This document shows, piece after piece, positions 1 to 64,000 of a stretch of 64,000 bases of DNA. Origin of the DNA: Vermamoeba vermiformis (taxonomy: Eukaryota); contig JBEWZL010000209.1 of assembly GCA_045837725.1 (NCBI GenBank), forward strand, positions 248,001 to 312,000, in the 5' to 3' direction. A program made the position numbers and the translations under genes. Numbering within the stretch: the stretch's first letter is position 1; each line of letters opens with the position of its first letter. The notes under the pieces are model-generated. The model was not told the DNA's origin and made no database searches. It was given only the letters and a program-made list of their open reading frames with translations.

Positions 1-3000
1 TGCATGAGGAGACTCGAGCGAATAGCCCAATTCAAAGCCAAGCACTCCGAACTCACTCAACGTGGAGTCAACAATATCAATGGAGGCCTTGGCACTGGCC
101 AGTTGTTGAAGAGGGAACCAAGTCTTGCCTGTGTTTTGATCGTGCATGACAGCGTGACGATGAGAGAAGGGACCGCGTTGACTGTCTTGACCGGCAAGAC
201 GGACGTGATGGCCTTCTAACAACAGAGTCCCAAAGGCCAGTGCTTCGGCAGTAGCCCAATCAAGTCCCTTGCCAGTTTGGAACATTTGCTTCTTAGCTGC
301 GAGCAATCGACTGGACCCAAAAAATGATCGTCAGTATCAAGGTACATATGGCCGTATATGTTCATAGAAATCTTACGTCAAAATAGGATGAGGAGTGAAA
401 CCGTCAGGGAGGCTGGTGATGACCTCTCCGATGTACTTAAGGACATCTGTAGGGGCACCAGTACATATGTTCTGGATGCGAGCATCTGTCTTGGGGCCTA
501 AATTATACGAGTAAGCTATCTACTGCACATTGTTCAATCAATTCGAATTGTCAGATCCGATCCGATCAACGACCGACCGACGTACTCTTAAAGTCCTTCC
601 ATTTGGACTCCAACCAGTCGCTAGCTATAGGCTTATAGCTCTTGCTCGCTTCCATAGCTTGATTCAAAGTGGCATAGATCCGTTCCTTCATGCGAGAGAA
701 GGCGTCTTTGTTAGTGAGTCCTTCGTGGGCCAATCGTTCATAATAGTAGTCCAAAGTGGCCTTGTGTTGCGCAATGTTCTTATACATCAACGGTTGAGTG
801 AATCTAGGTTGGTCTTGTTCGTTATGGCCAAAGCGTCTATTCATTACATTAGATCATAAAAATTTCGAAGAGAAACAGAATTTTTGTAATATTTGAAATA
901 GCCGATTACGTACCTGTAGCAAATGAGATCAATAACTACAGATTTTTTAAACTACAAATTAAAGCCGTTAGCAAATTGGAGCGGACAGACGAATTTTCCA
1001 AATGCACCTTTTGTCTCCATTCAGTGGCCAACTGGCAAGCATGAACAACTGCTTCGGGGTCGTCTGAATTAACGTGGAATATAGGAGCGCCAATAGACTT
1101 GGCGATATCGGTGCAGTACTAAATAAAAAAATGAGGATCTGCTTTCGTCGATCGGAAAATTAATACGAACGAGAAATAGCTAAATTCTATATAATATATC
1201 ATGTTGCCAAATTAATATTCTTACTAAACCACCACGCGAGTTTTGAGGGTTGGTAGTGAACCCAACTTGATTGTTGATGACAATATGAACGGTACCTCCA
1301 GTAGTGTAGTCAGCAACACCAGCAAAGTTCAAAGTTTCCCAAACAACACCCTAGATAATGAAATAGATCAGCATTATCAAAATATTCGCGTTATCCTAGC
1401 TGTTGTACTAACTATTGGTTAGATGTTGAATTTTCGATCCGAAACTTTTTAATTAAAGGGGGAACTTACTTGACCAGCGAATGAAGCGTCTCCGTGCAAT
1501 TGAACAGCCATTGATTTGCTTCGCTCAACATCACCGCTGTAGTATTGTTTAGCACGTGTCTTGCCCTCAACAACTGGATCAACAGCCTCCAGGTGCGAAG
1601 GATTGGCCAAGAGCGACAAGTGCACTATCTTGCCACTGCGTGTCGGTCTGTCGTACGAGGTGCCCAAGTGATATTTGACGTCACCAGAGGCCCACTCATC
1701 GTAGATAACAGCACCTTTCTCGAACTCGTAGAACAGCACTTCGAGAGGCTTGCGCACGACGTTGCCGAGCACATTCAACCGACCTCTGTGGGCCATACCA
1801 ATCACAATTGATTCCACGCCAACGTTAGCAGCTGTATCGATCATAGCTTTCATGCCAGGGATCAACGCTTCGCAACCTTCCAGACCAAATCTAAAACAGG
1901 ATCGTTATTCACTTAGAAATTGGTAATTATTTAAATAAAATTGGAAATATCGTCAACATAGATAATAGTTGAAGTGTAGTACGCTAATAATCAGGCCTTA
2001 TTATTATTAGTATTTTTAGTATTTGTCTAACAAAAGCTTTTAAAAATAAATTTGACGCTGTTTGATACTAAAATTTACCTCCTCTGAATGGGAAACTTAA
2101 AGAACAAAAATTGTTCGAAGAAAGTGGCCCAAGCAAGCCGATCCAAAATGAGAAGTTTGTCATCCTGTATTGCAATACAAAGTGTTTATAATGGCTATTA
2201 TTAAAAAGAAATTACTACGTTGATATCGTAGCATAATTTAACTTCAATTAATGCAGATTTGATTGCGTGCTGCTTTCCGGTTCGAAAACGTTTTCTGAAT
2301 AAGATTTTTGTTGGAGTCAAGGTTATAACACGTCACCGGGCACAGTAATTTCCTATTAATTGGTGCCTAATACTCAGAATTTACAAATGAAGTTAAAGTA
2401 TTTTAGAGCACGACGATTATTGGATGTTGATAGCAGTCCAAAAAAATAGTAAGCATACAAAACACGATATAATCGATAATTGATAGTCTAAAAAATAGCC
2501 AAAAATTGTACAAAATTATATTGTAATTTTTCTGTGGCTTACCTTGCTAAAAGAATATTTTCTCTCGGTCTCGAATTGTTCTTTAATCCAATTGATCTCC
2601 TCGCGGTTTTGAATGTGCATAAATTCTACACCAATATTGTTGCAATAGGTTTGCTGGAGCTTTTCTATAATTTCGCGGAGGGTTCGCTTGGGCTTGTTAC
2701 CGGACAGGAATCCAGAGATGAGGCCTGCGTTCATCGGAATATAGAATTCGCGGTCCATATCAGCTTCAGTGAAGCCATAAGTCTCAGGTAATAATTCAGG
2801 GAATACGTGGGGCATGTACATTCCCAGAGGATCGGCTTTGGCTTGCGTGTGGCCACGTACTTGATAACTACGAACAAGCAGCATAATCTTCAAGCTGTCT
2901 TCGATAGTCTTTAAGTCTACCGTTCCTGATGCAGCTGTCTGAGCGAGGAAAGGCAAATCTTCGAGCGAGATCACCGGATTTGCAGAATAGTCTCCAGGTT

Positions 3001-3310
3001 GAATTCCATTCTCTATCCTTGAGAAAAATTCGGCCCATGAGATTGGAACATTTGCAGAATCTTGCTTCCATAAATCATACAGATGATCTAAATAATTGGC
3101 CGCAGAAAGCCAACTTTCCGAGATCTGCTTCAGTGTTGAGAGCGTTGGAGCAGCAGATTGCGTAGAATAATGGTCCAATGGAATACATATACCATGTTGA
3201 GCCGTCTTAGCTTGCTTTCGGTGGACGGCGAATAGGGCAGATGAGCGAGATGTGGTAAGGCCTTTCTTCGCTAATGCACAAGCCCTCCGCAATAACACTC
3301 GGGACAACAT
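1..3310 (-). CDS. OGDH: 2-oxoglutarate dehydrogenase E1 component, mitochondrial (multi-exon; 3' end runs off the window start)
   Basis: Exon translations contain [75 protein letters not shown] and [16 protein letters not shown]. The Arg-rich N-terminus [11 protein letters not shown] (ATG at 3310) looks like a mitochondrial presequence. Confidence 0.96.
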
Positions 3311-3761
3311 TAGTAGTGGATATGACTTCAAAATTTGTTTGCTCAATTTATAGGAAGGCGTTTTGTACAAAACTGAGTTCAATTAGAACAAAATCACGTG
3401 TATTTGCTTCTATTTAGAAGGTTCGGGAAATCACTGTTGCTGCTGTTGACAGTCAAAGAGGCCATGCTCTGCCAAGTAAATCGGGTAAATTGCTAATAAA
3501 CAATAATGCCTTAAGTCTGGTCGGTTTTCCGATCCCTTGTTGTCTACGACATCCGCACAAAATAATAACGTTCTTCTCAAATAGCCAATAAAAAAAACCA
3601 TGAATCGCCAATGATATGCGATCCACGATGTTAAATTACATTTACTATAATACATCAGATTTCTTGCAACAGTTGGTCGTACACTTAACGATTGTTCGAC
3701 GCTATAATACAGCATAGTTATTTCAGCGCTGCGTGTACTAACAAGACCAACTGCTCTCGAC

Positions 3762-12384: not shown

Positions 12385-12741
12385 GATTAGTCTTGTGTTT
12401 GTTATTTAGCTAATAATGAAAATAAGGCATTCCACCAATTTTACTGCTGAGTACGCAACGGCAGCCGTAGAAACTGTTTGCTATCCTCAGTTATTACTGC
12501 GCTCAATTTATTTGTCTCATATTAATATTAAGAGACCTCTGTGTTGATTGCGTTTGGAGCAGATACGAACCATCTCAGCCAGCCGATCGAGCGTGCGCCA
12601 AAAATAAAGGTAATATAAATATAATACGTGAAAATATTAATATACGAGGTAAATTACTAACTGTACATTTATATACAAGGGAATTGAGATCTAGCACAGC
12701 ATCTAATCTGCTTTGTATTGAGGGTAAGAAGCTCTTCAAGT

Positions 12742-12820
12742 ACTAAAACGCTATCTCGGCCATCGAACCATAATTATATAATTAATTTTAGTGGTTCGCG
12801 CGTCATTCAAGCGTTTTAGT
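12742..12820 (-). promoter_or_regulatory. SECIS element (type II-like) in the 3' UTR of the Rdx-family selenoprotein gene
   Basis: Minus strand reads ACUAAAACGC-uuga-AUGAC-gcgcgaacca-cuAAAau(uaauua-ua-uaauua)-ugguucgauggc-cGAga-ua-GCGUUUUAGU. It has a perfect 10-bp helix I, the AUGA/GA core, helix II and an apical AAA with an AU-rich mini-stem, about 45 nt after the stop codon. Confidence 0.88.
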
Positions 12821-12864
12821 TTTGACGATCAACTTGTCTCGAGCAGATTCGTTCTATAATCGAC

Positions 12865-13440
12865 TTATTTTTTCTTCTTAAGCTTATATCCTAATTTTAA
12901 CATGGCCACTTCGACATCTCTAGGACTCGGATATCGATATTTCGTCAGTTTAGACCAGATGACGTTCGATCCGCTCGTGATCTCAAAGGCGCCCTTAGTA
13001 GGATTCGTGTCTTCTTTCTCGATGGTGACTCCAGGGAAATCGACTTGAATACTAGCTTTCATTAAGAGGCTTTGAGACCAGGCCCCGCCTCAGCTGGATC
13101 CGCACGAGGTACTAATGAATAATTCTTGTTAATGGATTATTTTATAATAATAAGAGGAAAATCAGTAATAATAATACTGATAATGAAGTATTGGAGCTAA
13201 TATATCTTTATCAAGCTCAGTGACAATTTTAGAATAATTAATGAAAATTTAAAACAATCAGATCTTCGTCTCTGTAATAATTAAGAGTTATTTTATCATG
13301 AATACTACTTACTTATAGCTGATTTTAATAGGAGGTAATTGTTTGTTGATTTCGGCCGGATCTTCTTGAACTCCGGAGTTTGCATTGAGCGTCTTTGGCG
13401 CATCTGGCTCTACTTGAGCCTCTGCCGTATTCTCACTCAT
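12865..13440 (-). CDS. Rdx-family (SelW/SelT/SelH-like) selenoprotein, about 124 aa, with Sec encoded by TGA at 13092-13090
   Basis: Exon 1 13440-13313 plus exon 2 13111-12865 give ...PIKISYNTSCGSS-U-GGAWSQSLLMKASIQVDFPGVTI...TKGAFEITSGSNVIWSKLTKYRYPSP... The GxFEI...IWSK...RxP signature is typical of the Rdx family. The TGA is in frame with the downstream ORF 13062-12865, and a SECIS follows. Confidence 0.88.
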
Positions 13441-13686
13441 ATGAAATATTACAATATCGCTTGGTGAGGTCCTATTGTTGTTTGAACAATAATTATGTTC
13501 GAAGACACTCGGACAAAAGTTCAACTTGAAGCACGTGCCGATTCGTCAATAACGAGACAATTACAACAATAACAGTAAGATAGTACTAAATACCTAATTA
13601 AGCATCTCCTAATCGTCTCGCTGTCGGATCTTGATTGCTGATCGGGTGCACGAAAATTCTTGAGCGGTAGACAGAAAAGAAAGGCT

Positions 13687-14973
13687 TTATTCAGCATCAT
13701 TACTCGTGTTACTATATGATCCGTACCAATGCTTATTCTTCGGTTCTGAAGCCAAGCAAAGATTGCGGCGATAGTAATCAATGCCAGGGTGCTCATTGCA
13801 CGAGACCTCCAAGCCACAGTGTTCGCAGTCTTCAGCGCATCGGTGACAAAATCTCTTGTAGCAGTTGATATCTGTGAAATGGCAGCCTATTCATATCAAA
13901 AGGTAAGTACTATAATGATAAAAGTTGCCGTGAAGTTAGTGGATGTGACTGATCCGGAACTGACTTACATTCAGCGCAATTTTCACATATAAATCGATTG
14001 CATCTATAACAAAGCCCATTTAATTGATGCCGATCCGTTAATGATGGCAAAGTACACAGCATGCAGTATCCACGGCCACATCCGCATACCAACACAGCCA
14101 GATCTTCTTGATGACAATTTGCGCAGTATGATGCTCGCTCAATATGAGCAGAAATATTGCACTTAAAGCATTCCTTGGCCAGAATTACAGTTTTTACTCC
14201 CGATGCAATTTCTGAACCTGGGTACGTTTTAAGTTTTCGTCAGATTTGAAATCGTATTTGAAAACGGATATTATAGATTATGGTTTAATATGCCGATGAG
14301 CTTACTTGAAAAATACGTTGCAATGAAATGTTCCGTCTCCAAAAATGAGTTATTGTAGTCAAAATTTTTCTTAGCTTTGATCTTCCAACCTTCTGGATCC
14401 CACTTCATGCGGCTAACAACTATTAACAGTGTTATATTAAGTGCCAATACTAACGAGATATAGTATTTATGGTAAAGCTTACCTGAGCGATTTTCATTCA
14501 ATGAAATTATTGAGATCGACAAAGGATCATGGCATTGAAAACAGAACAGATGATCGTCATTCATATAGTTATCGATATTAGCGCCTAATCTTTCTTTAAG
14601 GTACGTCGTATATGCAGTTCTCAGGGTTTTTCGTTGATTTTCAAACGGGTCCTCAGATTTGACCTTAAAATCATTAGTAAAACAACGTTAAAAAAAATTA
14701 AATATTAGAACAATACAAATCTAATCTATATATTACAAAGCATGTTTGATCAAACGAATTTTTATAAATTAATTGTCTTTATTAATAAATTTTAAATTGG
14801 CTTTGGTGCTGGGAAGCTCTTACCTCAATATTAAGAAAGTCTAATAATGTGTTCCATCTAGCAGGTACTTTCAGGGGCCGTTCGTTTCCCAACATGCAAT
14901 AAATAAAATTCGCGCGATCAGATTCGTTAAGGTAGCTAAGCAGTTCCTTCCATAGCTCGAGCGGCAGTTCCAT
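13687..14973 (-). CDS. F-box protein with a Cys/His-rich (zinc-binding) C-terminal region
   Basis: N-terminal MELPLELWKELLSYLNESDR is F-box-like. Later exons carry many CxxC pairs (CFQC, CFKC, CANC, CMLC, CYRC, CENC, CHRC, CEHC). Confidence 0.65.
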
Positions 14974-15073
14974 AGGGCCAAAATGTGCAATACACGAGTG
15001 TGTTCGTTGGTCAGTTGGCTTGAATCAATTGTACGTAGAAAATAACTTATTTCGTACTCGAACATGAAAGACA

Positions 15074-15811
15074 ATGCACAACAACAGCGCCTTAAAGTTC
15101 AATGACGACACTATATTTCAACTCGTCAAGCGCATGAACATTGACCTGCGCGAGCACAGAAAGCCGATCTGGAGTCAGTTCTTTAGGTACTATGAAGAGC
15201 GGCGGCCAAAGTTATCGGAGGAAAGAAAAATAGGAGCTATAGTGGCGCTTATATATGTTATAGACGACATATATCTAGGCGAAGAGGGCATTTTACAATT
15301 TATTATCGACATGGTAAAAGAGTTAAATCTGGCAACTCCGGCGAAAATTCTTTACAACGATAATTTGAGAGCTCATGAAGATATGGGCAAGTGGTCTGAG
15401 ACATTGGTAAGTCGATTTTGTCTTTTTTACATTATTTAAGTCGAAGTAAACCAAAACCAAATCCGCTAAAATTCTGCTAGTTGTTCTTAAGGCTTCCAAT
15501 ATACATTTAATTACCGCGTTACAATACAATATTGTTATGATTAATTATGTATGCAGCCAAAATACACCGTCGTCTTAGGCAAGCGGAAGCACGAGTTTGA
15601 AATGATCTACGATCTACACGGCGGAACTGTTCGCGGCGAATTAGGCGTCGTTTATTCGTATAACTTGGACTTCTATCAAGGCAAAACTTTGTGTCATATC
15701 GCTAAACCTGGCGAGACTTATGTGGCCAAGAAGACGAAGCCGAAATCAACAAAAATGTTCAAAAAAACGAAGCGCGTTGGTGGCGTTAAATATGCATCGC
15801 TCATTAATTGA
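15074..15811 (+). CDS. Hypothetical protein, copy 1 of a tandem pair (2 exons)
   Basis: ORF 15074 spliced at gtaagt (15406) ... tgcag to PKYTVVLGKRKHEFEMIYDL...; clear paralog immediately downstream; no recognisable domain. Confidence 0.6.
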
Positions 15812-15936
15812 ATTAGTCTATTATTACCTTGTATATTCACATTCCCTTATTGTACATTTTGATCGAAAAAAATTTGCAGATTTGTTTGTTCACGAAACAA
15901 AAAATTGGCTGAACGGAATGAACATAAGAAATAACG

Positions 15937-16784
15937 ATGCAACAAATAGACAATATTATTACTAATTTAGAGATCAACGAAGAAAATGCATTCGAGCTGG
16001 CCAAGAGACTGAACGTCGTCAAGATCCTAGAACATCGAAAGCCGATCTGGAGGCAGTTCTTCAGTTATCATCGACAAAGACTGCCAAATCTACCAACAAT
16101 ACGACGGATATACACCTTAGTATACTTACTTAAGATTGGAGATGACGGATATTATGGAGAAGAAGAAACTAAGAACTTCATTTCTGCAGTGCTCAAAGAA
16201 CTTAAGATAGAGGGCGTGTCGGAGGACTTGCTATTTGAAGACATCAGTAAAGGACGAGCAATATTATCGACATGGATAAAAAAGCAAGTAAGTTATTTTA
16301 AAGTTGAATCCGAATCTAAATCCGCAGTGGACGTTGGGAAAGACATCGTTTTCTAAATAGATATATTTTCTAAATATGCTCTAACCTCCATAATGCTAAT
16401 TATAGCCAAAATATACTGTTCTGTACAAAGGCAAAAGTTTTGACTTCGAAATATTTTACGATCTACTCTAAAAAATTTGTGGATCTGCATCAAAATAAAC
16501 GTTGGTTGTACCCAACAAATATGAATATGACGCGCTTTAATATTTAATAAGGATCCATGGTAAAATAAAATATTTATAAATACATTTACACTCTTACAAA
16601 ACAAAATTGAGTAAAAACGAGCCTCTTTGTTCGGTGGCACTTAAGAGTTTCAGCGTCATATAAATTGGACTTCTATCAAGGCGAGACGAAATGTTATATC
16701 GCTAAACCTGGGGAGACTTATGTGGCCAAGAAGACGAAACGAAAGAAAGAACGCAGCAAGACCGTTGGGGACAAAGAATATGTA
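15937..16784 (+). pseudogene. Copy 2 of the tandem pair: C-terminally truncated (stop 16469-16471), followed by an insertion and a frameshifted remnant of the original 3' end
   Basis: Shares EHRKPIWxQFF...YxGEE and PKYTV...FExxYDL with copy 1. It then stops. About 160 bp of unrelated sequence follow, then a near-copy of 15660-15745 with a 1-nt deletion (cctgggagact vs cctggcgagact). Confidence 0.55.
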
Positions 16785-17176
16785 GCACTGAAATAATAGT
16801 AAAAATACCCTCATTGTAATAGTTAAGAGGATAATAATATGTTTTTTGTCCCGAGGTCCTACTAGAATCATCCGGGGAAAACTTTGCAGATTCGACTTTT
16901 GGGACAAACTGGGCATCACATTATTGGTGATCATTATGAACTGTTCAAATGCAGCTAATAGTACTAATCGAGAGTTAATAAGCAACGAAGACGCTAGATT
17001 CGGGTTTGCTAAGCGAGTTGACATCAGGATCATAGAACGAAGAATCTTGCTCTCGGCACGTTAAACCGGATCTGTCCCGTCACAAAGCTTTGTACTAATT
17101 AGGCAATAACATATTCGTTTATATCATACCTATTGATTATTTACACATGAAATGAAGGCGAATTAAGCACGCAGAT

Positions 17177-18648
17177 CTAGTTCTTTTCCTTGACGCTCCA
17201 TTTGTGTTGGATGCTCTCGCTGTTGAGACCGACCATAGGCTCACCAAGGTCCTCGCTGACTTGCGCGAGAATTTTAGGGTCATTATAGTGCGTAGTGGCC
17301 ATAACAATAGCTCTGGCTCGTTTCTTTGGATCACCGCTCTTGAAAATGCCTGATCCGACAAACACGCCGTCCATGCCAAGTTGCATCATTAAGGCTGCGT
17401 CAGCAGGAGTAGCCTAGCATATCAAACATTAGCATATTTCCTTTCATTACGTAACGGATGCAGATCCGCTAAATTTCCAATAAAAATCAATTTGAATTAC
17501 TTACCACGCCACCAGCAGCGAAGTTAACGACGGGCAAACGACCTAATTGCTTGACTTGTTGCACGAGTTCAACAGGTGCTTGGATTTCTTTGGCGTAGCT
17601 GTACACTTCATCGTCGCTCATGCCTTTAACTTTGTTGATCTGATTTAAAATCGATTAGAATTGTTTATAATCGACTACTATTATTTTGTGTACCTCACGC
17701 ATCAATGCTCGAGCATGACGAACGGCTTCAACGACGTTTCCAGTGCCTGCCTCACCTTTGGTACGGATCATGGCTGCTCCTTCGCTAATTCGACGCAAAG
17801 CCTCGCCTAAATTACGGCAACTATAATAAATAATCAGTACCGTAGTAAGGTAGAGCAATTTTCGGTTCAGAACTTACCCACAGACGTAAGGTACTTTGGA
17901 TTTGTGCTTGTTAATATGATTTTCTTCGTCAGCAATGGTGAGTACTTCAGACTCATCGATGTAATCGATTTCGAGGGCTTCTAATATTTGTGCCTCGACG
18001 AAGTGGCCTAAAAACGAATCAGGTCAAAAATTCTGAAGGTTTTTACGATTGGATCTGATCCGCCAGTACGCGATTCAGCAAAACTTATGAAACTTACCAA
18101 TTCTGCACTTAGCCATAACAGGGATGGTAACTGCAGCCTTGATCTCCTTAATCAGCTTCGGATCTGACATACGAGCAACGCCGCCTTCAGAACGAATGTC
18201 TGCTGGGATCTTTTCGAGCGCCATCACTAAAACGATTTGTTAATCTTCGGAAAAATATCGCATATATGTATGTAATATAGACCGCGATTTGGTATTGGTA
18301 TTTTGATTAAAGCAAGAAAACTTTTCGGAGCCGATCAGCTGCATCTTCGCAAGAAATTTTCTAATTGATTTGATTCGGTATGAAATAACTTACCGGCAAC
18401 AGCTCCAGCTTCTTCGGCAATTTTAGCCTATTTAAAGAGCAATCAGTAACAGTTCGAAAGGTAGCGCGATTGTACGTGATTGGAAAAATGCGGATGTAGC
18501 TCGTTATCGATCGACTTACTTGCTCAGCATTGACAACGTCCATAATAACACCTCCTTTGAGCATTTGGGCGAGTCCAGCTTTAACTTTAAAGCTTCCATG
18601 GACTGAATCTGCTCCGTGGCCATTAGCAACTCCGTTAGTTTGCGACAT
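17177..18648 (-). CDS. PDX1: Pyridoxal 5'-phosphate synthase subunit PDX1 (SNZ family)
   Basis: [96 protein letters not shown]. Confidence 0.97.
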
Positions 18649-19086
18649 ACTTGATATTTGTTGTGATTAACTCGTGATGGTCGTTGAAAATAGCTTAAAA
18701 CTGAAATCTTTCTTTATTTGACGACGGAGCGGGTGACACGCAGTGGATTCGCGTGACAGGTCGGTTTTGGCCAATATTCTCTCGCAAAATGATAGTCCGA
18801 GTTCCTTATTTGGTGAAAAGACGCCTCCACGAGCTACAGTGAGTTCATTTTCCGTTACATTTCGCAAATCGAAGATTGATAGAAGATTCCAAGCTACCGA
18901 AGTTGCGTTTATTTCCACTCCGCGTAGATCCACTACAAAACATTTCGGAAAAGTAAGAAACGATCGTCGGTTCAAATTAAGCTTATTATTAGCAAGATTA
19001 GCCCTTAAATAATCGATAAAGTAACGTTTGATTGGGATCGGATCTAACACCACATTTTTCAGAAATTGAAACAACAACGCCAAAAG
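18649..19086. promoter_or_regulatory. Probable bidirectional promoter shared by PDX1 and PDX2
   Basis: 438 bp between the divergent start codons of the two subunits of one enzyme. Confidence 0.6.
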
Positions 19087-20071
19087 ATGAGCAACGTAAA
19101 AATCGGAGTATTAGCATTACAAGGTATAGTACCTTCATATTTAAATATACACGTATTATCAAGCACGAGAAATTGAAGATTCTTACAATTCAGAAAAATT
19201 GTTGCAATTTTAACGCTCTTTTATCAACTATTAATAGGCCCATGTTTGTAGGTGCATTTAGAGAACATATTGACGCGTTGAAAAAAATACCCGGCGTTGA
19301 AGCCTTTGAAATCCGAACTTCGAATGACATGTACGACGGAGATCGACTTAAAATCGACGGTTTAATCATTCCTGGAGGTGAAAGTACCGCCATTGGTATG
19401 TAATTTCAATAATTTATCGGAGTTGATGCTTAATTTTGACTTTTGATCCAGCGACCGTTGGTACATCTAACGGAACCCTCGACGCCGTCCGTCAATTCGT
19501 GCAAAAAGGTATGTATAAATTATAATCATATAAGTCTATAACAAAATCAGCGTGCTCGATTTTAATATTGCACGGCAAAGTTTGGATCTGACATATTTTC
19601 GAACTAGGCAATCCAACCTGGGGAACTTGCGCTGGCTGCATATTATTGGCCAATCAAGTCTCGTCTCAAAAAGCAGGCGGCCAGCCCTTAATAGGCGGCA
19701 TGGATATATCAGTACAACGTAACTACTTTGGCCGCCAAGTCGCGAGTTTTGAAGCAGATCTCGCCCTAGATGCGCTCGACATGAAAGACAAGCCATTTCC
19801 CGGCGTATTCATTAGAGCACCAGCTATATTAGACGTACTTCAGCCTAACGATGGTTCGAAGCCGCCAGTAAAAATTTTAGGTTCAATTCCGAATCCAAAT
19901 AAGGCTAACTCGGACCCGTCAACAACGCATCCGGAAACACTCGTGGTAGCTGCTCAACAGGGCAATATGGTCGCCACTGTATTCCACCCAGAACTCACTA
20001 CTGACACGAGATTTCATGAGTACTTTGTCGAAGTGGCACGGAAGAACAAAGCGCAACAACACCACGCTTAG
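19087..20071 (+). CDS. PDX2: Pyridoxal 5'-phosphate synthase glutaminase subunit PDX2 (SNO family)
   Basis: MSNVKIGVLALQ|GAFREH, DGLIIPGGESTAI, WGTCAG (nucleophile Cys), RNYFGRQVASFE, GVFIRAP, FHPEL. Confidence 0.96.
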
Positions 20072-22832: not shown

Positions 22833-23585
22833 TTAGTTCAGTATTCTATATTCTTAATATTGTTATTAAAAAAGATTGCGTCTGTGCTGCATCTTGTACA
22901 CGGGCTTGAATAAGACGGCAGAAAAAATGTCTAAAAACTCAAACACGTGGCCCTAAAATACACGGATCCGCTGAATTCAATTTCGAATAAAGTATCGGGC
23001 TTAATAGAAAGTGATTTGACGCCATGAGCAAGTTCGACATTCGGAAAACGCGTACTTTTACAAATTTGTTTTGATTTCACAACGTTAAAGGGATGTTGAG
23101 ATTGTTAATTATGTATTAAGGCATTTATTTAAGAGGAGTCGCAACGAATATGAACGGTCCTACTTTGTCGTGTAGCAAGACAAAGAAGTTCATTGACTGG
23201 ACCTTCCTAGGAATAAAGTTAATCCTGTCGGTCCAGATGTCGCACTTAGTGTCAGTGCGTCACTAGCCGATGAATAGTGGGCAAGTTTTTAAGTAAAAAC
23301 TAGTAAAATTAGATCGCATCCGAGTACAAAAAAAAATAGAATTCAAAATTTTGGTGCAGGTAAAGAATGGAAACATCAGATTTTGTACATTAACTGCGCT
23401 CGGGAATTTAAAAGATTTTTGGAGCTCCACTAAAACCGACTTGCTGCGAAATTTGGTTCTTTCACGAAACTTTTTTCGGCCGTTGCGGGCTCCATTAGTT
23501 TAAACATAAAAACCATGTTTTAGAAACCTATATTCATTCATTACTTACCTACAGTATACTTCAAGTCAACAACAAGCCCAACGAA

Positions 23586-24759
23586 ATGAGATCGTTCATC
23601 GTATTGTTGCTTCTTTCCTTCATCGCTATTACTCTTTGCCAATCCCCTGTCGCTGCTCCAAGCAATACTGGAGACGGTCGTGCTCGTACTCTCAAGTTCT
23701 TCAAGGCACCTGGTGTAGTTGGTGTAAAGGCTGTTGCCGTATCCAAGGTTGGCGGTATGGCCGAATTGGATGCGATCCTTGCCGGTGCTACTATTACTCC
23801 CTTCCCCACCATGGCATTCTCTTACTTCACTGCTGAGCGCAATGTTACCGAAGACCTCACCACCTTCACTTCTGGCCGTTTCTCTTTTGCTTTCAGATTT
23901 GTCGGCATGGTCGAGTACGAGGAAAGCGGCGCCAACCCGGGCTTCCAACCTGATGGTAAATATTATTTATAAATTAAACTGGATATTTTATCGAGCGAAT
24001 AAGCTTGAAAATTTTGTTGCGAAATCCGATCGAGCTACTAACTGATGACTTACGATCTTCTTTATAGAGGATACCCCCGTCTCTTACTACTCTTTCCGCA
24101 AGGAGCTCGTCGGCTGGGAAGCCACCACTACCTCTGAGGTCAACAACAACGGCCAAACTGTTCGCGTTGCTACTGCATCCACCAAGGACGGCGTTGTTGC
24201 CTTCACTCTTGTCTTCGCTGGTGACCGCACTGTCTACGAGAATAAGACTTTGAACGGTGACAACTTCAAGTTCAGCGTCAAGATCAACTACGGCAATGCT
24301 CCCAACTACAGCGGCCGCAACGACACTAGCATTGCTATCGTCACTCTTGCTGCCTCCAAGCAGTCCGTGAAGGATATCCAACGCTCTGATCAAGACGGTG
24401 ACGGCATTGAAGTGCCCTCTGGCGAGAAGGCTATTGTTGGTACTCTCAACTGGGACAACCAAGTCACTGGTACTAGCGGCGACAAGCAGGGCCTCTTCAA
24501 CCTCGTCAGCACCGTCGATTCTACTCTTCGCAACGACTCTGCTGCTATTAACGTCACCACTGGCTGGACTACCAAGGTTGTCTACCACTCAATCTCTTTG
24601 GACAATAGCATGTCCATTGGCAACACCGAGTTGTACTGGGATCCCGAGCTCGGAGCTGATATTGATTATAATGCCTTGGGCTCTTCCACCTCCTCTGCTT
24701 CGTCCATCATTGCTTCCATCGCTGTTGTCATCAGCGCCATCGTTGCTTTAATGGCCTAA
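23586..24759 (+). CDS. Secreted, probably GPI- or TM-anchored surface protein of unknown family (2 exons)
   Basis: Signal peptide MRSFIVLLLLSFIAITLC; one intron about 23956-24068; C-terminal YWDPELG...SSASS + hydrophobic IIASIAVVISAIVALMA; strongly biased codon usage. Confidence 0.8.
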
Positions 24760-27036: not shown

Positions 27037-29656
27037 TTATTTCTTGAGCTGAGCAGCGGTCTCGTACAAAGTGGCAAGAGCTTGCAAACCTTGAGCGTCG
27101 GGGGTACCATCAGCAGTTTGAGGTTGATCGTTGCTAACGGCGTCCCACCAGAACATATGGAAATCAGCAGGGAAGCGGTGGAACTCGCGAGGCTTCTGAG
27201 CAGTAACTGAGGGGTAGACTTCGTGGTGATTGAAGCGAGCGACTATACGATGAATACATTAGCATATTTTCGAAAAAAAGAACGAAGATCTATTTTGGAC
27301 TTACATCCGGATCCAGGCAAGTTCTTGGGTTGATCGGGGAATGAAGGGAATTGACGCAACCAGCCAACGAATGAGGCCCAGTCAAGGACGTTGCCTCCGG
27401 CAAAACTGCTAGTTTCCATCTCATCCATGCCTTCAATGCCTCCGTACGACAAAACTTTAGCCTTATTGTACGATTGGAACTTGGTGATGAACAACGCGCA
27501 AGCAGATCCGCAAGTACCGTCAGTGATGATAGTCAAGTCATCGACAAAGTAGTCAATGCTCTTAGTAGGGCTCAAATATGAATCGCATTCGGCAGGGAAG
27601 TAACTAAGAAAACGAGTTAGATCCGGATTTGAGCAGAATTCCTTTTTAGGAAATATTAAATACTTACACTTGCGAGCTGAATTGACCAGTAACACCACCA
27701 CGAGTGCGAACGACAGAGTCTTCGTACCAAGTGTTGTCAGAGTAGACGCGACCAGTGTGCATGTTGTAGTACTCTTGCGGGGCGTTGAATCCAACCTTAG
27801 TCAAGCCGTCGTTCATGGCAGTCTTGCGCATGTCATAGGGCTGCCACACGGTCTGGTTGGGGTTAGTGCCGGGAGCACCTCCGGCCCATTCCTTGACCAA
27901 AGTAGCTTGAGCGGCGATAGCCAAGCAAATAATACCACCTCTATATTATAGTATAATTATTAGTACAGAAATTACGGAGAAAAATCCATTGCTCGGATCG
28001 GCTTTTTCGATCTGAATGAAAATTCGACTTACCCGTTCTTAGCAACGTCGATGACAGCACGCTTGTGGTTCTTAGTCTTCAAAGACTTGGCGAAGCCAGT
28101 CAAAACGCTTTGCCATGAGTTTTGGTTGGATGGAGCGAAAGAAGTGATCTTCAAAACGGGAACGACAGATCCGTCTAGAATAAACAATGAGGAGCGATTC
28201 GAATATTATATCGTGTATATTACGTACCCTTCAAGGTGTATTCGAAGTGGTAGATGGAAGGTTCACCACCCCAAGTAGATTCAGCGGCGACCTGCTTGAT
28301 GTTCTTGGGATTGCCAATGTCAGCGTTGACTTCAGTAGTCTTAGTAACGGATCGCTTGTTGAAGGAGTGAGTGCGAGCAGGTCTGTACTTGCTCAAGTGA
28401 GCAGGCACGGGCTTGGGAGGAATAGCAGATCCGATAGTGTCTTCAAGACGAACAATAACTTCGCGGCGGATGTCGGGAGTGAAGAAGAATTTCTTAACAG
28501 ATGCAGCATTGCCAGCGGACATATCGGCACGAGCACTGTCGATTTGTTGAACGAAGTAGTCGGTGCTCTTAATTCCGTTTTGAGCAAATCCGAGGTTAGG
28601 AACTTGGACGATCTCGTTGGGCTTGTCGGCGAAGACGATTGAATCAGCATCGAGCTCTTGAGAGAAGGGGAATCTGAATGCTTCAACGAGCGGCCAGCCT
28701 TGTTGTTGCAACACGCTGTAATTAATAAAATTAATAAAATATTTTATCAAATTTATAAACGGGCTCATCACTTACGCGTTAACTCGAACAGCTTGGTCCT
28801 TGTAGTAACCAACGTATTTATCAGCGTAGTCCTTCAAGTATTCTAAGACGTCCTTGCCGTTCACAACGGAAATTTCTTTGCCATAGTAGGCGGATGCGTT
28901 GAATCCAACGTTCTTTTCGAAGATAGCTGAAGGGAAAACGCCTTGAGTAGTGAATACGCGCATCTTGCCATTGTCATTGACGGCATGAAGAGCGAAAGGA
29001 CGAATGGCCAAGCAACTTCTGTACAAGTACGGGGCACCATAGAAAGTGTGAGCATCGTTCAAAGGAGTGAACAAGCGGATCAAATCTATTAATTGAAGAA
29101 AGAGTGTTAGAACTTTCGCGCATTGATACAATTTATTAGTGTGAGCCGATTGGCGCAGTTTTGTGAGTTGTAATGAAATCCCAATTGAAAATTCGAAAGT
29201 TCGTTGTCGGTGGACAGTATTTGCAATAATTCTATGGACGTACCTGCTTCAAATTCGTAGTCTCCTTTGTATTGTCCATTGCTGATCTTAGAATTGATCT
29301 TGTCGAGGGTTCCGTCGAGATCAATTTTCATGTTGTAAGGAGCACCAGAGTCCTTGGCAATGTCGGTAAATGAATACAACTGAGTCAGTTGTTTCAATAC
29401 GCGGACAGTACCAGCAGCTCTGTCTTTTGAGAAAGGAATGTTGTCGAAGCAAGCGCGGAGTCTGGATGTAGCAAAAAAGTTAAATTAATTAATTCTTTTT
29501 AGTTTACTGGGAATGCACTTACTTGGCGACAGGGCCAACCCAGTTATTGCCTTGGTTGCGTTCCAAGGTGCACGGATCGGCTGCTGCGACTTGAGAAATG
29601 ACCAACGCGCCAAACAAGGCGAGCACGGCGAGGGTTATCCTGAACGGAATCTTCAT
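27037..29656 (-). CDS. Secreted S41-family (tail-specific protease/CPAF-like) peptidase
   Basis: Signal peptide MKIPFRITLAVLALFGALV; YSFTDIAK; LNDAHTFY; VIDVAKN-GGG; IITDGTCGSACALF (catalytic Ser region); SFAGGNV. This motif series is typical of eukaryotic S41 peptidases. Confidence 0.8.
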
Positions 29657-30857
29657 TTGTGTGAAAGCTAATGTGGTGATATTCGAGTATGTAGTAGTAG
29701 GTCTCGGCTATATACGACTTTTCTAATAGATGGTATCCGTATCAAACGTAGAATGTAGTTTGTTGGAACGGTACAACGGGATCTTCTATTGAAAAAAATA
29801 AAAATAAACGAGAACAAGTGGTATGGTCTCGTTGATAGCTTATATTACTAAATAACATAAAAATGAGTTAGTGTTTTATAGTTTTGGGCCTGAAAGTTCT
29901 AACGCAAATTGCCTGCGCTTTTTCGAATTCACACCTTCGGCGCGTGCTCCGATGGAAAAGTTGAAGGAGAAAGCTTGGATACTGTCGCACGGGCATTCTG
30001 TCAATATTCGCAATATTACGGTGTGTAGGTACACTAATGGTCATAATTTGGGTACGCCAATAACAAACGAATCAAAGTTAGTAATCCTAAATCCAAAAAA
30101 TCGTTAGATCTTGGATGTAATTTTATTTAGTTAGGCCTAACTGTTAAAATACTTACTAAATCAGTTATAAGCATATATATATACCATATTTTTTTCATAA
30201 TTATGCTTCGTTCAAACATTTAGTCAATTTTGCTCAATAACCTCAACAAAATAATTTTGTTCGCTGCTCGTTGTATTAATTTTTCAATATCGTAGACCGC
30301 ATTGTTCTTGCTAAACAGTAATTACTTAACGGAGTTGTGTGCTGCCGATGCGTTTCAAATTTATTTTTTGTTTTACGCACCTCAGTATATTAATACCGGT
30401 CATAGCACCACGATAACATACTGCATAGTGACATTATTTCCTCACTGTTATTGATATGCACGAGGCAGCAGAAACAGTCCTAATCTGTATTTATAACTGG
30501 AGGCAAATGAAAACCAACTAAAAATTAGCCGCAGGTACTGCTGTAATAATTAATTCAAATATTGTACTGAATTATCCGCGTAATAGTCGCCGATTTAACG
30601 GCACACCATATTTTTCAATTATTTTCCTATTTTCTCAAAAAATCTTTCATAATGAAAGCAGCCACAAAGTCTATACTTTACTCTATCACTCCGTGGTAGA
30701 CAATATTCGAAGTTATTTTTGTATGAATCTCGATGAGTTCTCCATCGGTTTCATTCTCGACTAAATTTGTCAAAGTACATCCCGATCACAAATTTTTACG
30801 AGGCTCAATACGGCAGTCAATCGAATATACTTTATTGTAGCACAGACAACATATTAT

Positions 30858-33800
30858 ATGGAGGGAGAAGTCGCGGTGTTACGCGAACAATTACAGCAGC
30901 TGCAGCTCGCTTCTATCAAATCCAATTTTGAGCTGCATTTACGAAAGCAGATCGAAGAACTCACTAAAACTATTCGTAAATATGGCAACGAGAATATAGA
31001 TACAGTGCTAAATAGATGCACGACGATTATTCACCAAACATTCAACCCCGTACCAAATTACTGCGGAATTGAATTATTAGATGATCTCAATCAGCAGCTG
31101 GTATTACGAAGCGCTAGCAATATTATAGACGCACATAATCGCAAGGTCACTATGCCGCTGACCACAACACGTAAGTTTTTCTGGAAAGATTTAAATATGG
31201 ATCCAAAATTTTTCGTCTTAAATCCCGTACAAGATCTACCGAAGAGTTTATTACGTAAATTAATAATATAGAAAAATCATATTATATTTATTGACTAATA
31301 CTACTTTCGTAGCTGACGATGGAAAGAAGTCTTTGCAACAATTCACGCTGCAGAACAAGGATGCGCCAACAATATTTAGCGACATTAACAACGACCCTAG
31401 ATTCGACCACGCACACGATCACCACGCGATATTTCCAAACACAACATCTGGTATTTCTATCGCGCTGATTTCTGACAATTTCAGTGAACAAGATCCATCG
31501 AAAATCAAACCCCGAACAGAAGAAGACGGCAATGCAGAGAAATTAAGGAAAGGTGGAGAAGAATATAAGACGGCAATAATAGGCCGATTCTTCGTATATT
31601 TCATAGATCGACATGAATTTTCCGACGAAGAATTGTGGTTCATTAACTCTGCTTCGAATCTGCTCGCGGATGCAATAACTCGGCATAAACTGCGAAACCA
31701 ACTATCGGAGAGCTCCGAGCGATTCAGGTAAGTCTTTTTTAACCTGTATAAAGCTAAAGCTTGAGCTATTTTTAGACTTTAGCTAATTTACTGCGACAGA
31801 ATTCTAGCGGATTGTTCGCCAGTAATGCTATGGATGACGTAAGTGACCCTATTATACCCTTTCTAATCTATTCATATCTTGCTGAATATTTCTGTTCTTT
31901 CGCGTACCAGCATTAATTTCATTATTTTAGGGACCATTCATCATTGTGCACTTGGTTCAACAAGCCATGGTTGACGTTTAGAGGTCGTTCGTTAGGTAAG
32001 CGTAGTGATCTCTTTTTTTAGAAATCAACCTCGATCGGGTTCAACGATCTGATTTACTTTTTTTGTAGAGGAAGAATACGGCAACGGATGGGCTGAAGGC
32101 ATACACCCTGATGATTACCACCACAATATGAGAATATTTTTGTTGAATTTCAAGAAACGCAAGCCGTTTGAAATGGAATACAGAATGTTGGGTAACGACG
32201 GAGAGTACCACTGGATCCGCCACTCCGTACGTACCATTATCCATAACAATGAATAGTATATACTTATATATATTTAGGGAGCCCCTCGAATGTCCGCTAA
32301 CGGCGAGTTTGATGGATTTATCGGATCTTGCGTCGACATCACCGAAATCAGACAGAGCCGTAGAGCAACATTTGACGCAAAGCAGCTTGAACAGAGCATT
32401 CATGCCAAGAATAAGTTAATTGAGCAATTTGTTACTGACACTCGCGTAAGTCAAGCTCATATACTTTTTGATCCGCAACAAATTTTCCTTTTTAGGAAAT
32501 CCCATTACATTCAAACATTACCTCATTTACCAAAGCGAATACTTTATGATACTAATTATACAATTATGGATTAAGATTTTCTCTGATTGTTTTTTGTTCG
32601 TAGAATCCACTCGAAAGTATTCTGGCGATGAATTCTTTACTGCTTGACATGAACTTAACGCCTGAACAACGAAGTTATGCCGAAGGAGTGCAAATGGGAA
32701 CGGAATTATTGGTGGAATTATTCAGTGATCTATTTGGTAAGAAAAAATTCGGATCAGATCCGGACCAAAAACCTAACTTTTAATGAATAGATCTGACGAG
32801 GAGCGAACAGACTAAAACAGAGCTAGAATACAACGAGTTTAGTGTATACGAGGCTATTGAGCCAGTTGTTGGATTCATCTCTCATTCAACGCGATTGAAA
32901 AAGTTGGATGTGGAATTGGTCTCGTCGATTGAGCCCAAAATTCCGATGCTGAACGGAGATTTGCTTCGATTTAAGCAGATCATTATGAATCTTATTAATA
33001 ATCACTTACTTCGATGCGGCGATGGCACTGTCATTTACATCAAGTAACGAAACGAAAATTTCCTTTTTTGGACATCGATTCTAATCCAATATATTTTCTT
33101 AGAACCCAAATTGGATCGGAATCGGACGACAAATTGCAGCTGAAAATAGATTTCAAGCACGTTAACGGACTTTTACGTGACAATACTCGTCAGCAGAGCA
33201 GATCCATTATGACATTCGGCGAAGAAGCGTTAGGTATGACAATATTAATCTACATTACTATATTAAGCATTGTTACTATTTATAGGCGTTTACATCGCTA
33301 GACAGCTCATTCAAGCAATGAACGGTGAAATTTCGTTTGGCAGTGAGACCGCGACATTCTGCAAAGTGAAGTTGTGGTTCGACAAATCAGATAATAGGAC
33401 CAACAAGTATATGCAAGTGGGTGAGACCCCGGCTGATGCAGACGACACGACGAGTCAATCTGATGAGGGCGAGCCCTTGTTCGGTACGTAGCGCAAAGTT
33501 ACATTTTTCACTTGTTTTCAACATCATGACACGTGTCATTTTGAATCTTGCGTCATTTGCGATAAAATCGACTTCTACGCAACGTGTCAACAAGTGTGAC
33601 ACGCATCACTCGATATTTTTAAGTGTCAAGTTTTTCTTTTCAACGAAGAGGGACCATTTAACTACTTGTGTCATTTGATATTTTTCACGCGTTAAATTCT
33701 TTCGCTGAAATCTGCAGTGCTTCGGCATAATGTGACAATTTTGAATACCTTCTTGCAAGGGAGCTGCAAATTAACGTAGTTTTTATCATCAGATAATGAC

Positions 33801-34343
33801 CTCAGATCGACACAAAGTCCTAGTCAAAGCTGTTCTATTCCCCGCTTCACTCGCGACATTAGAATTTTGATCGTGGATCCGCATCTGGTCGCCATTGACA
33901 CCATCACAGCGTACCTGAACACAGAACCGAAGTATAATATAGATTCGTCTATTAGCATCAATGAGGCTGTCAGAATGATCACGCATAGTCTCGAGACTAA
34001 AACTCCGTACGATCTGATCTTGCTGGATTTCAAGTTCGAAACTTTGGGCCGATTTATGATGCAATCGCATCCTAAAATGTTCAAGACTACGAAGTGGGTA
34101 CCTATTATATTCCCGCAAGATACTTCTAAGCTCGCTGCACTTGAATGGAAGTACAGCAATGTCATTTACAAGCCGATCCGGATGAACAATTTGCTTGAAG
34201 CAGTTTCTGATACTATTATGGATAATGAGAGTATGACTCCCTTATATATGAATTATTCTAATATTTCCAAGAATAACGATTATCGTGTAACTAATAAAGT
34301 ATTTTAATTTCCAGTACAAACTCTGAAAACGACGATGGCTTAG
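30858..34343 (+). CDS. Hybrid histidine-kinase-like protein (GAF-like, PAS/PAC, degenerate HisKA/HATPase, receiver)
   Basis: PAS: SPVMLWMT..WFNKPWLTFRGRSL|EEEYGNGWAEGIHPDD..FEMEYRML..DGEYHWI..FIGSCVDITE. HisKA-like AKNKLIEQFVTDTR|NPLESILAMNSLLLDMNLTPEQRSY. GDLLRFKQIIMNLINN. G|VYIARQLIQAMNGEI. Receiver RILIVD...YDLILLD...KPI. The 3' end is approximate. Confidence 0.85.
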
Positions 34344-61456: not shown

Positions 61457-64000
61457 TTATTTTTTGTTTTCCCGAAGCTTGGTCAAATCGGCGCTAGGAA
61501 TTTTGGTGATCAAATCATCGATGAACTCTGGCGGTAGCTTGTCCCTCTTAAGCTTCTTCATGATAGGTCTAATGGCCCCAGAGCCTTTACTAGCCCCCAG
61601 CTTGAGGTACGCTTGTCGTTCTTTCATCACTTGACATGTCATCCGGTATTTTGTTGGATCTTCAATTGACTCCTGTAACTTCACATTAGCGACTTCTGCA
61701 CTGGTTATTGTAGCTCCTTTCGATAAGAGGTATTCAACGACTTGATCATTGGAGTAGAACGATGTTTGTGCCATTAAAAGCAACGAGTTTTGTTTGTTGT
61801 CGGTAAAATTGACGTCAAAGCCAAGTGTCTCGATCAAAAGCGTTGTTAACTGAAGATCGACGGTGAATAGCGACAGTTCTCTGCTCAAATCTTTGTCGCT
61901 GTTGTTGTTAAAGTACTCGTCAATCTCGCTTTTGATGAATGCGAAGTTCTCTGGTGTTGCGTACTGCTTACAAACATCAATGATGTTATATTTTGTACTA
62001 GAAGTGTCATTTGAAGTGTCGTTAGATTCACTGCCATTCTTAGAACCTACAAACTACATTAGCGGAATGGAATTTCTCGAACATTAAATCGTACTTGGGA
62101 ATGCTGTTGCCAATTGTGCAGGAGAAAACTGGAGTAAGTAGTGCATGAAGGATTGATCCGCTTTGTTTTTGTGGCGAATGTTGACTTTGCCGCTTGCAAG
62201 AAGTGTCAGAATTATTTGACACGTGTAATCGTCGCACCATGACGACGGATCCAAGAGCATCAGTAAAGGTGTCATATGCATCATTGACTCGTAGGCATTG
62301 ACATCTGCACCGCATTCAATCATTGTTTTGATCTCCATTTCTTCATCGGAGTTGAGCACCGCACGATGAAGTGGCGTTTGACCGACCTTGTTCTGAGCAT
62401 TGATGTCAATATGCCTTGACAGGTATCGGATCAAATCAAGTATATTTTCCAGCACAACGCCGTCATTATTAATGTCGCCTCTATTTGGGAACAGTGCGTG
62501 CAATAGCGTGTTGCCGGCATTGTCGATAATATCGAGTCTCGCACCGTGCGACACGAGCACTTGAACAAGTTCCACTGGCGCACCACATCGAACAGCTGTG
62601 TTCATGGGATAGGTTAATCGACCCTTTGCATCGTAGTCACGATTGTTGACATCTGCGCCATGCAGCAGTAGTGAGAACATGGCTTGTGATGCGAATTCTC
62701 GGTCTGAAAGTGACAAACATAAGCAGAGTGGATTGACGGTGTTTCCAGCTATATTTGGATCGGCGCCATGTTCTAAAAGCGTATCAACAGATGAAATACT
62801 TTGTGCGAGGATTGCTGAAATTAACGGGGTATTGTCGTTCTTGTCGGGCTTGTTAATATCAATCTGCAAACCTTCTAAGATGTCCTCGAAATCTCCTCCC
62901 AGTTCTATTAGGTACGTTAATACTGATTGGCCTTTTTCGTTGTAAACTTCGTCGAGTGGGATCTTCACTTCTTCAATAAATTGTTGGAGCTGTTTTACTT
63001 CCATTGCTAAGAGAAAGCGAAATAAAAACTTCGTGGCGAAATCTTTTGGTATGATATCTTTGATGGATTGGTAGCCTTTCATGAAGACCGGAAATAATAA
63101 ACCAATATAATCGGATTCGAATGAAATCTCCACCCCACGTTGGACTAATGCTAGCCAAACAGGATAATTCTCTATAGCATAACTCGCAAAATTATATTCT
63201 CCTTCTTTGGCTGGCCTCAGTAATCTCTCTTCTCCAAAAATGTCGACCAGATCTTCGTACGACGGCGCTTTTTGAACTATTCTTTTGATGTCAACGCTAA
63301 ATAATTGATCCAACTCTTCTTTCGGAAATTGCATTAGAACTTCTTTAACGGAGTTGAAGTCGAATTCTCCTTTGACCAAAGTACTACATAAATTCTGCGG
63401 CGTTGAGTTTTGTGGATTTGACACCAAACCGAACTTCTCTAATAAATCCAGAATGTTGTTTGAGGCTTTATGAGTCCATTTCAAGTTCCACGACCAGGTG
63501 TACACAAGCGTTGGAAACACAAACTGACGGGATCTTTCTGAAAAAGACTCTTCGTATTCTGCGGTGATGTAACCGTGCTTTTCTAAGAATCGTTGAGGTA
63601 CTCCCATGTCTCTATAACTATAAAGCTCCTTAATTGGCGTGTCCACGTGAGTTGAAATAATGTGAGTACGAAGTTCCTTGGAGATCGAAGATCAGGTAAT
63701 GTTGATGAGGAAATCTGCAATTAACTTGAACTCCGAGGGCTTTGCCATACTCCTCGAGCTTTTTCCAGTCTTCTTCGGCCTCTTCCTTCTTGGCATATGA
63801 AGAGGTCTGATTTACGTATAAAGTCTTTAATAACGGAAACATTGTCGTGGTCCAACTGAGGCTTTCAACGTTCTTAGGCAATTTATCGATCACTATTTCG
63901 AGTTCTCTAACTTTATCCGAGATATATTCTGGATTATTGAGGTCGACACCGGTTGGTAGATTTCCACGGAGCAAGGTCAGCTGTTTTACGTTCGGGAATA
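61457..64000 (-). CDS. Ankyrin-repeat protein (5' end beyond the window)
   Basis: DINKPDKNDNTPLISAI...LLEHGADPN, LLLHGADVN, GNTLLHA, INAQNKVGQTPLHRAV, GADVNA..MTPLL. The three track ORFs join via two short introns. Confidence 0.85.

Follow-up and report, generated by a model that had tools for sequence, protein, structure and literature searches.

A spliced two-exon gene of Vermamoeba vermiformis for a predicted Rdx-fold selenoprotein with a displaced selenocysteine

The window analysed here is a stretch of 64,000 nucleotides from Vermamoeba vermiformis (assembly GCA_045837725.1, contig JBEWZL010000209.1, positions 248,001 to 312,000), and positions are counted within it unless another sequence is named. 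Its minus strand carries a real spliced two-exon nuclear gene for a 124-aa small redox-type protein of known fold (Table 1). Exon 1 (128 nt) runs from an ATG at 13440 to a GT donor after 13313, the AG acceptor of the intron stands before 13111, and exon 2 ends with a TAA stop at 12867-12865. GC content is 22% in the intron vs 45% in the exons. The spliced frame holds 124 codons plus TAA, with a single internal TGA at codon 50 and a single Cys at codon 46. Seven of the first 34 residues are D or E; the domain is basic (14 K/R vs 7 D/E), and the C-terminus is a run of Lys. The acidic N-terminal extension noted in a preliminary description is thus present, but its novelty does not hold, as the extension is poorly conserved and MIEN1 also has a flexible one (PMC3527542, partial text).

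Table 1. Features of the two-exon gene and its 3' region. X1, X2, X10 and X22 denote sequencing-run data; L001 is an orthologous metagenomic locus; P0003 and P0007 are database proteins.
Feature	Positions	Strand	Evidence
Coding exon 1: ATG, acidic flexible N-terminal extension, strand beta1 to Tyr42	13313..13440	-	contigs X1, X10
201-nt GT..AG intron splitting codon 43	13112..13312	-	skipped in X1, X10 and one X22 read
Coding exon 2: active-site loop, helix alpha1, GAFEI strand, basic Lys-rich tail, stop	12865..13111	-	Pfam/TIGR profiles, L001 comparison
Cys46 (TGC), sole Cys of the protein	13102..13104	-	kept in L001, P0003, P0007
In-frame TGA, predicted Sec50, Gly/Ser loop before helix alpha1	13090..13092	-	unchanged in X1, X10, X2
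SECIS-type hairpin 3' of the stop	12741..12820	-	folding, pattern scan, L001 pairing

The joint of 13313 to 13111 through a single in-frame TGA, proposed at first from the letters alone, is borne out by sequencing runs. Among the four runs examined (of 24 listed), contigs X1 and X10 show exact removal of 13112-13312, and the same 13313/13111 joint occurs in one raw read of X22. X1 is an RNA run by guess, X10 is a metatranscriptome, and X22 comes from a diverged relative. The X2 contig is unspliced. Spliced contigs cover exon 1 from 13480 (X1) and from 13397 (X10). Since X1 spans 13480 to 12652, it places the coding part and the hairpin on one spliced record. A check of the four runs for transcripts that avoid the TGA or use another acceptor found none, no other joint being present, and the TGA at 13092-13090 shows no letter difference in X1, X10 or X2. 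Five donor/acceptor pairs give at most two stops, and only 13313/13111 is supported by RNA-run data. The database protein P0003, with 91% identity across exon 2, has its exon joint there too and shows W at the TGA site. An alternative acceptor before 13093 (AG at 13093-13095), which would give an in-frame form with Sec and without Cys, was rejected; it is unseen in the runs examined and absent in L001.

In L001, the candidate selenoprotein gene starts approximately 195 nt after the stop of PDX1 (SNZ), whereas the corresponding interval of the window is approximately 3.7 kb longer (13441-17177 vs 2464-2661 in L001). Two paralogous plus-strand ORFs that fit no clear family lie in this interval, at 15068-15439 and 15928-16356, with 37% identity across 113 aa. 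The interval also contains an 83-nt repeat (88%) whose copies are separated by exactly 1000 nt, an ORF with weak F-box similarity (14785-15024), and another rich in Cys and His (13910-14239). Beyond it, at 17177-20068, PDX1/SNZ (minus strand) and PDX2/SNO (plus strand) lie head to head, and 17178-19740 matches L001 at 72.5%. A divergent PDX1/PDX2 (SNZ/SNO) pairing is also found in fungi. Further away, plus-strand exons at 30765-34304 contain a response-regulator receiver domain and possibly belong to a hybrid histidine kinase. Two long multi-exon genes (27246-29248, minus strand; 23499-24756, plus strand) apparently encode secreted or membrane proteins and have no Pfam match at E<=0.001. No tRNA gene is found within the 64-kb window.

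The protein belongs to the Rdx family by profile searches, as the preliminary description had supposed. Exon 2 scores 26.6 bits against Pfam PF10262 (cut-off 22.6) and 41.9 bits against TIGR02174 (cut-off 34.2, exceeded also by a second score of 44.8), for which the more distant relative P0007 falls below the cut-off (21.6). The C-terminal half contains the G-x-FE-[IV] strand, a signature of the Rdx family. This strand aligns with those of MIEN1, SelW, and Atu0228, and its Phe is invariant in 21 of 21 alignment rows. An AF2 model of the 91%-identical homologue P0003, built from a 21-row alignment in which three rows cover the motif, has a pLDDT of 84; at the Sec site, where P0003 has W instead of Sec, pLDDT is approximately 75. 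In P0003 numbering, the model has beta1 at 37-42, a turn at 43-45, a loop at 46-51, and helix alpha1 at 52-66. In structural comparison it comes closest to SelW-related proteins (Z 10.7-11.7, rmsd 1.4-2.5 A, 76-82 residues), followed by MIEN1 and SelW at Z 8.5 and thioredoxins at no more than 7.4. The protein thus models as a SelW/MIEN1-type thioredoxin-like fold. A single-sequence AF2 model (pLDDT 41) was set aside.

Conservation of the TGA can be followed in L001, which comes from a metagenome scan that gave two loci from 285 candidates; the other locus, L002, is bacterial and matches by chance. In L001 the intron site (the intron being 184 nt), the TGA and the SECIS-type hairpin are all retained, and both codons adjoining the TGA differ synonymously from those of the window. 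Across the 82 codons compared in exon 2, 48 are identical, 24 differ synonymously, and 10 non-synonymously; exon 1 has 68% nucleotide identity. The 16 codons from the start of exon 2 to the first internal Met contain one non-synonymous change, and the stretch around the TGA is therefore under coding constraint. P0007 is 39% identical over 112 columns and reads Y-S-P-K-CGSS-W-GG, with CGSS-x-GG identical to the window protein. The three-residue spacing between Cys and the predicted Sec, read in the first place from this organism, accordingly extends beyond it, to L001 with its TGA and to P0007. The most likely origin of the W in the gene calls P0003 and P0007 is a TGA translated with a TGA=Trp table. 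Residues 127-197 of P0007 form a Trp-rich C-terminal extension that resembles a 3' UTR read through under the same table and may hide a SECIS.

Protein searches returned 11 matches among 50% representatives and 14 with a profile. In the resulting 21-row alignment A3, which omits the long, many-stretch matches P0010, P0011, and P0014 and the near-duplicates P0017, P0018, P0024, P0026, and P0027, 18 sequences begin 2-22 residues after the Sec site, and only three rows cover the motif. This agrees with the earlier expectation that gene callers truncate such genes. The late starts fit truncation at the TGA, and in genomic calls an intron could cause the same. One truncated member comes from Planopodium desertum (Amoebozoa), which, together with the richness of the window's genes in introns, points to an amoebozoan source. 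The CGSS-x-GG motif is directly visible in only two lineages. No homologue with Cys at the Sec site was found, and the only two database proteins that span the site, P0003 and P0007, both have W. A protein search with the motif region returned the query alone and no further full-length member. A pattern scan of prokaryotic genomes found no relative (0 of 60 candidates), and BFVD gave no match at E<=0.001. The single locus from viral contigs, L003, was discarded as a chance GC-rich match.

The preliminary description placed a SECIS-shaped hairpin with an AUGA/GA core about 45 nt past the stop. The hairpin begins 44 nt past the stop, is kept in L001, and has an ungapped helix I of 11 bp, an AAAA apical bulge, and a mini-stem. 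Its core consists of AUGA at 12806 and GA at 12757, with 13 nt from AUGA to AA and 30 nt from AA to GA. The SECISearch windows for these distances are 10-13 nt and 15-39 nt, and the hairpin is counted as SECIS-type because its core, two helices, and distances agree with that description (PMC2375036, partial text). The folding z is -3.38, and 2 of 200 shuffles are equally stable. A SECIS-type pattern scan, tuned with the target in view and loosened after a stricter version missed it, found three candidates in the 64-kb window, and the target has the longest helix I. Shuffled windows gave 0.55 candidates per window at the loose settings and a helix I of at least 10 bp in 0 of 20. Rfam yielded no SECIS match, whether the limit was E<=10 or the gathering score. 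The Rfam SECIS models are animal-biased.

In L001 the hairpin, likewise 3' of the stop, has this core as well (z = -2.25). All 16 SECIS pairs compared form in both sequences, three of them via double (compensatory) changes, vs 25-41% in slid controls; with two sequences, a covariation shuffle is not significant (62/500). The element is 69% identical between the window and L001, as against 47-55% in the flanks and 50% in the intron. The strain contigs X1 and X2 each have one change that breaks a SECIS pair, both also have U in place of the C of the core, and the tuned scan no longer recovers these hairpin variants. With the conserved TGA and the hairpin, the internal TGA very probably encodes selenocysteine.

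The position of this predicted Sec within the family is unusual. The Rdx criterion is that a CxxU or CxxC motif follows strand beta1 directly (PMC13437758 and PMC3527542, partial texts). Here this motif is absent, with Asn at Tyr+1 (Ser in P0007), Cys at Tyr+4, and the predicted Sec at Tyr+8, whereas MIEN1 has CxxC directly after Tyr29, its first Cys being Cys30 (PMC3527542, partial text). Because of this absence, the protein is classed as an Rdx-fold variant and not as SelW, SelT, SelH, SelV, or MIEN1. A profile alignment to mouse SelW (2npb) puts Y-x-x-x-CG on YSGACG and leaves one 5-residue gap over SSxGG after Cys-Gly. The 2npb chain is presumably the Cys10Ser/Sec13Cys mutant of SelW. Alignments to Atu0228 (2fa8) put YNTSC ungapped on YCTQC. 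The ungapped Y-x-x-x-C alignment and the single gap after Cys-Gly place Cys46 at the canonical Sec site and imply that Sec is displaced. In the favoured register, five residues are thus inserted as one block after Cys-Gly, the first Cys of CxxU is lost, Cys46 takes the usual Sec site, and Sec50 falls in a new loop. Residue 50, very probably Sec, would sit four places later than the Sec of known relatives, inside this extra loop. The preliminary description had instead proposed a hidden Rdx selenoprotein with an insertion (NTS) after the strand and a stretched CxxU. Its spliced Rdx-fold gene, probable selenoprotein product, and SECIS-type element are upheld, but the NTS-insertion register is less well supported in view of the 2npb and 2fa8 alignments.

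In the register of the preliminary description, the same selenoprotein would have Cys46 and Sec50 as the C and U of the ancestral CxxU, set one residue further apart; small insertions would lie before the Cys and after the Sec, and Sec would keep its canonical spot where helix alpha1 starts. No loss and gain of redox residues is then required. The Sec site is three residues ahead of helix alpha1 in the P0003 model, where the loop has a pLDDT of approximately 75, and seven residues ahead of the Y/S-L-x-L-K anchor vs six in SelW. However, three indels are needed instead of one. In both the HMM and the pairwise alignments (2npb, 2fa8), Cys46 falls on the CxxC motif's second Cys and is followed by a Gly that matches that of SelW. 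Such an arrangement is considered unlikely.

Among solved structures, MIEN1/Rdx12 (C17orf37, PDB 2ljk) is the best sequence match (E 1.6e-7), and MIEN1 with its sister SELENOW2 is the best Atlas cluster (0.89, a lead only). The MIEN1/SELENOW2 clade has Sec and Cys forms (PMC13134290, partial text). MIEN1 is strongly acidic with a prenylated C-terminus, whereas the window protein has a basic domain, a Lys-run end, and no C-terminal Cys, and the MIEN1-type C-terminal prenylation motif is absent from it. A figure legend in PMC3527542 (partial text) gives 'Cys30 and Cys34' for MIEN1 where the text gives CXXC; this is probably a numbering slip but could pass for a CxxxC precedent. The protein resembles SELENOW (2npb) in fold (Z 8.5, rmsd 2.5 A, 81 residues), the FPG turn, the G-x-FE strand, and the use of a 3' UTR SECIS for the predicted recoding, but differs in the 5-residue insertion after CG and the lack of CxxU. 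The closest folds are the bacterial SelW-related proteins 2ojl, 2fa8, 2p0g, and 2obk (TIGR02174 CXXU_selWTH; Z 11.0-11.7, rmsd 1.4-1.7 A), which have CxxC or CxxU and neither intron nor 3' UTR SECIS.

The known variant of the SelW motif is UxxU, not a displaced Sec (PMC7539508, partial text). No Rdx protein with a displaced-Sec motif appears in the literature searched, although one might be present in supplementary SelW alignments (e.g., Fig. S7 of PMC7539508) or among the Selenoprofiles profiles. Within that literature, CxxxU together with 'selenoprotein' occurs only for trypanosomatid SelK (PMC1557815, partial text). SelK shares CxxxU with the window protein but is from an unrelated family, with a C-terminal Sec and no thioredoxin fold. 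The accessible part of 10.1101/314781 makes no mention of SelW or Rdx, and the Dictyostelium selenoprotein list in the available text of PMC2375036 has no SelW-type protein.

As a whole, the evidence is probably best explained by a two-exon gene for a SelW/MIEN1-type protein in which UGA is read as Sec50 and the site is remodelled with Cys46 as the resolving residue. In eukaryotes, a SECIS element, SBP2, and eEFSec insert Sec at UGA. Amoebozoans use Sec, as seen in Acanthamoeba (PMC8038987, partial text) and in 75Se-labelled Dictyostelium (PMC2375036, partial text). After removal of the intron, which is observed, the UGA remains within the reading frame of an RNA that also has the conserved SECIS-type element, and SECIS, SBP2, and eEFSec would then insert Sec at codon 50. 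An ancestral Y-C-x-x-U-G site would have been remodelled by one 5-residue insertion, perhaps, more speculatively, through duplication of an x-x-U-G unit (TSCG then SSUG). From the alignment and the model, Sec50 is expected to lie exposed where helix alpha1 begins, in a flexible Gly/Ser loop, and could from there attack a target disulfide or oxidised thiol. Cys46, as the sole Cys, would resolve the product through a Cys46-Sec50 selenenylsulfide, to be re-reduced by glutathione or the thioredoxin system. The protein would be a thiol-redox regulator like SelW and MIEN1 that keeps the Cys-then-Sec order from N to C, with a wider and more flexible ring. The basic tail, common to most members, may direct nucleic-acid or membrane localisation.

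Sec50 might also act alone, as a monothiol, glutathione-coupled, or peroxidase-like residue or as a redox-switched binding site, with Cys46 structural, metal-binding, or glutathionylated. The CxxxU spacing does differ from the strained CxxC geometry, and SELENOW binds 14-3-3 via its Sec (PMC13437758, partial text). However, Cys46 is the sole Cys, its distance from the site is the same in the window, L001, P0003, and P0007, and such a solitary Sec is very unlikely. That the UGA is not read as Sec at all, being a true stop, a stop bypassed by re-initiation at Met60, or Trp/Cys under a variant nuclear code, would suit the 65-aa database products beginning at Met60 and the W-containing read-throughs P0003 and P0007, but is highly improbable given coding constraint before and after the TGA, the conserved SECIS with its covarying pairs, the lack of beta1 and the active site in a Met60 product, both exon 2 Trp codons being TGG in the window and L001, and, as a weak test, long exons that use TGG with no internal TGA (e.g., 535 codons at 62087-63691 and 288 at 2519-3382).

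The preferred reading, a remodelled site with Cys46 resolving Sec50, involves neither a new recoding mechanism nor a new fold. There is about an even chance that the protein represents an undescribed, old, and widespread protist Rdx subfamily, at least partly amoebozoan, with a moved Sec, in which the Sec site has become Cys, the canonical Cys is lost, and Sec lies in an inserted loop, possibly via x-x-U-G duplication. For Rdx selenoproteins, CxxU right after beta1 is treated as a signature that does not vary; their substrates and mechanism are poorly known. A sole Cys and a displaced Sec would separate the two canonical positions and allow a direct test of the role of each. A search pipeline that insists on Sec being aligned with an established Sec or Cys would overlook this subfamily or score it wrongly. 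The gene would add a SelW-type protein to protist selenoproteomes, and the variant would show a route by which Sec changes place in evolution. If true, this would be a natural case of a catalytic Sec relocating within the thioredoxin fold, invisible to searches for Sec/Cys pairs.
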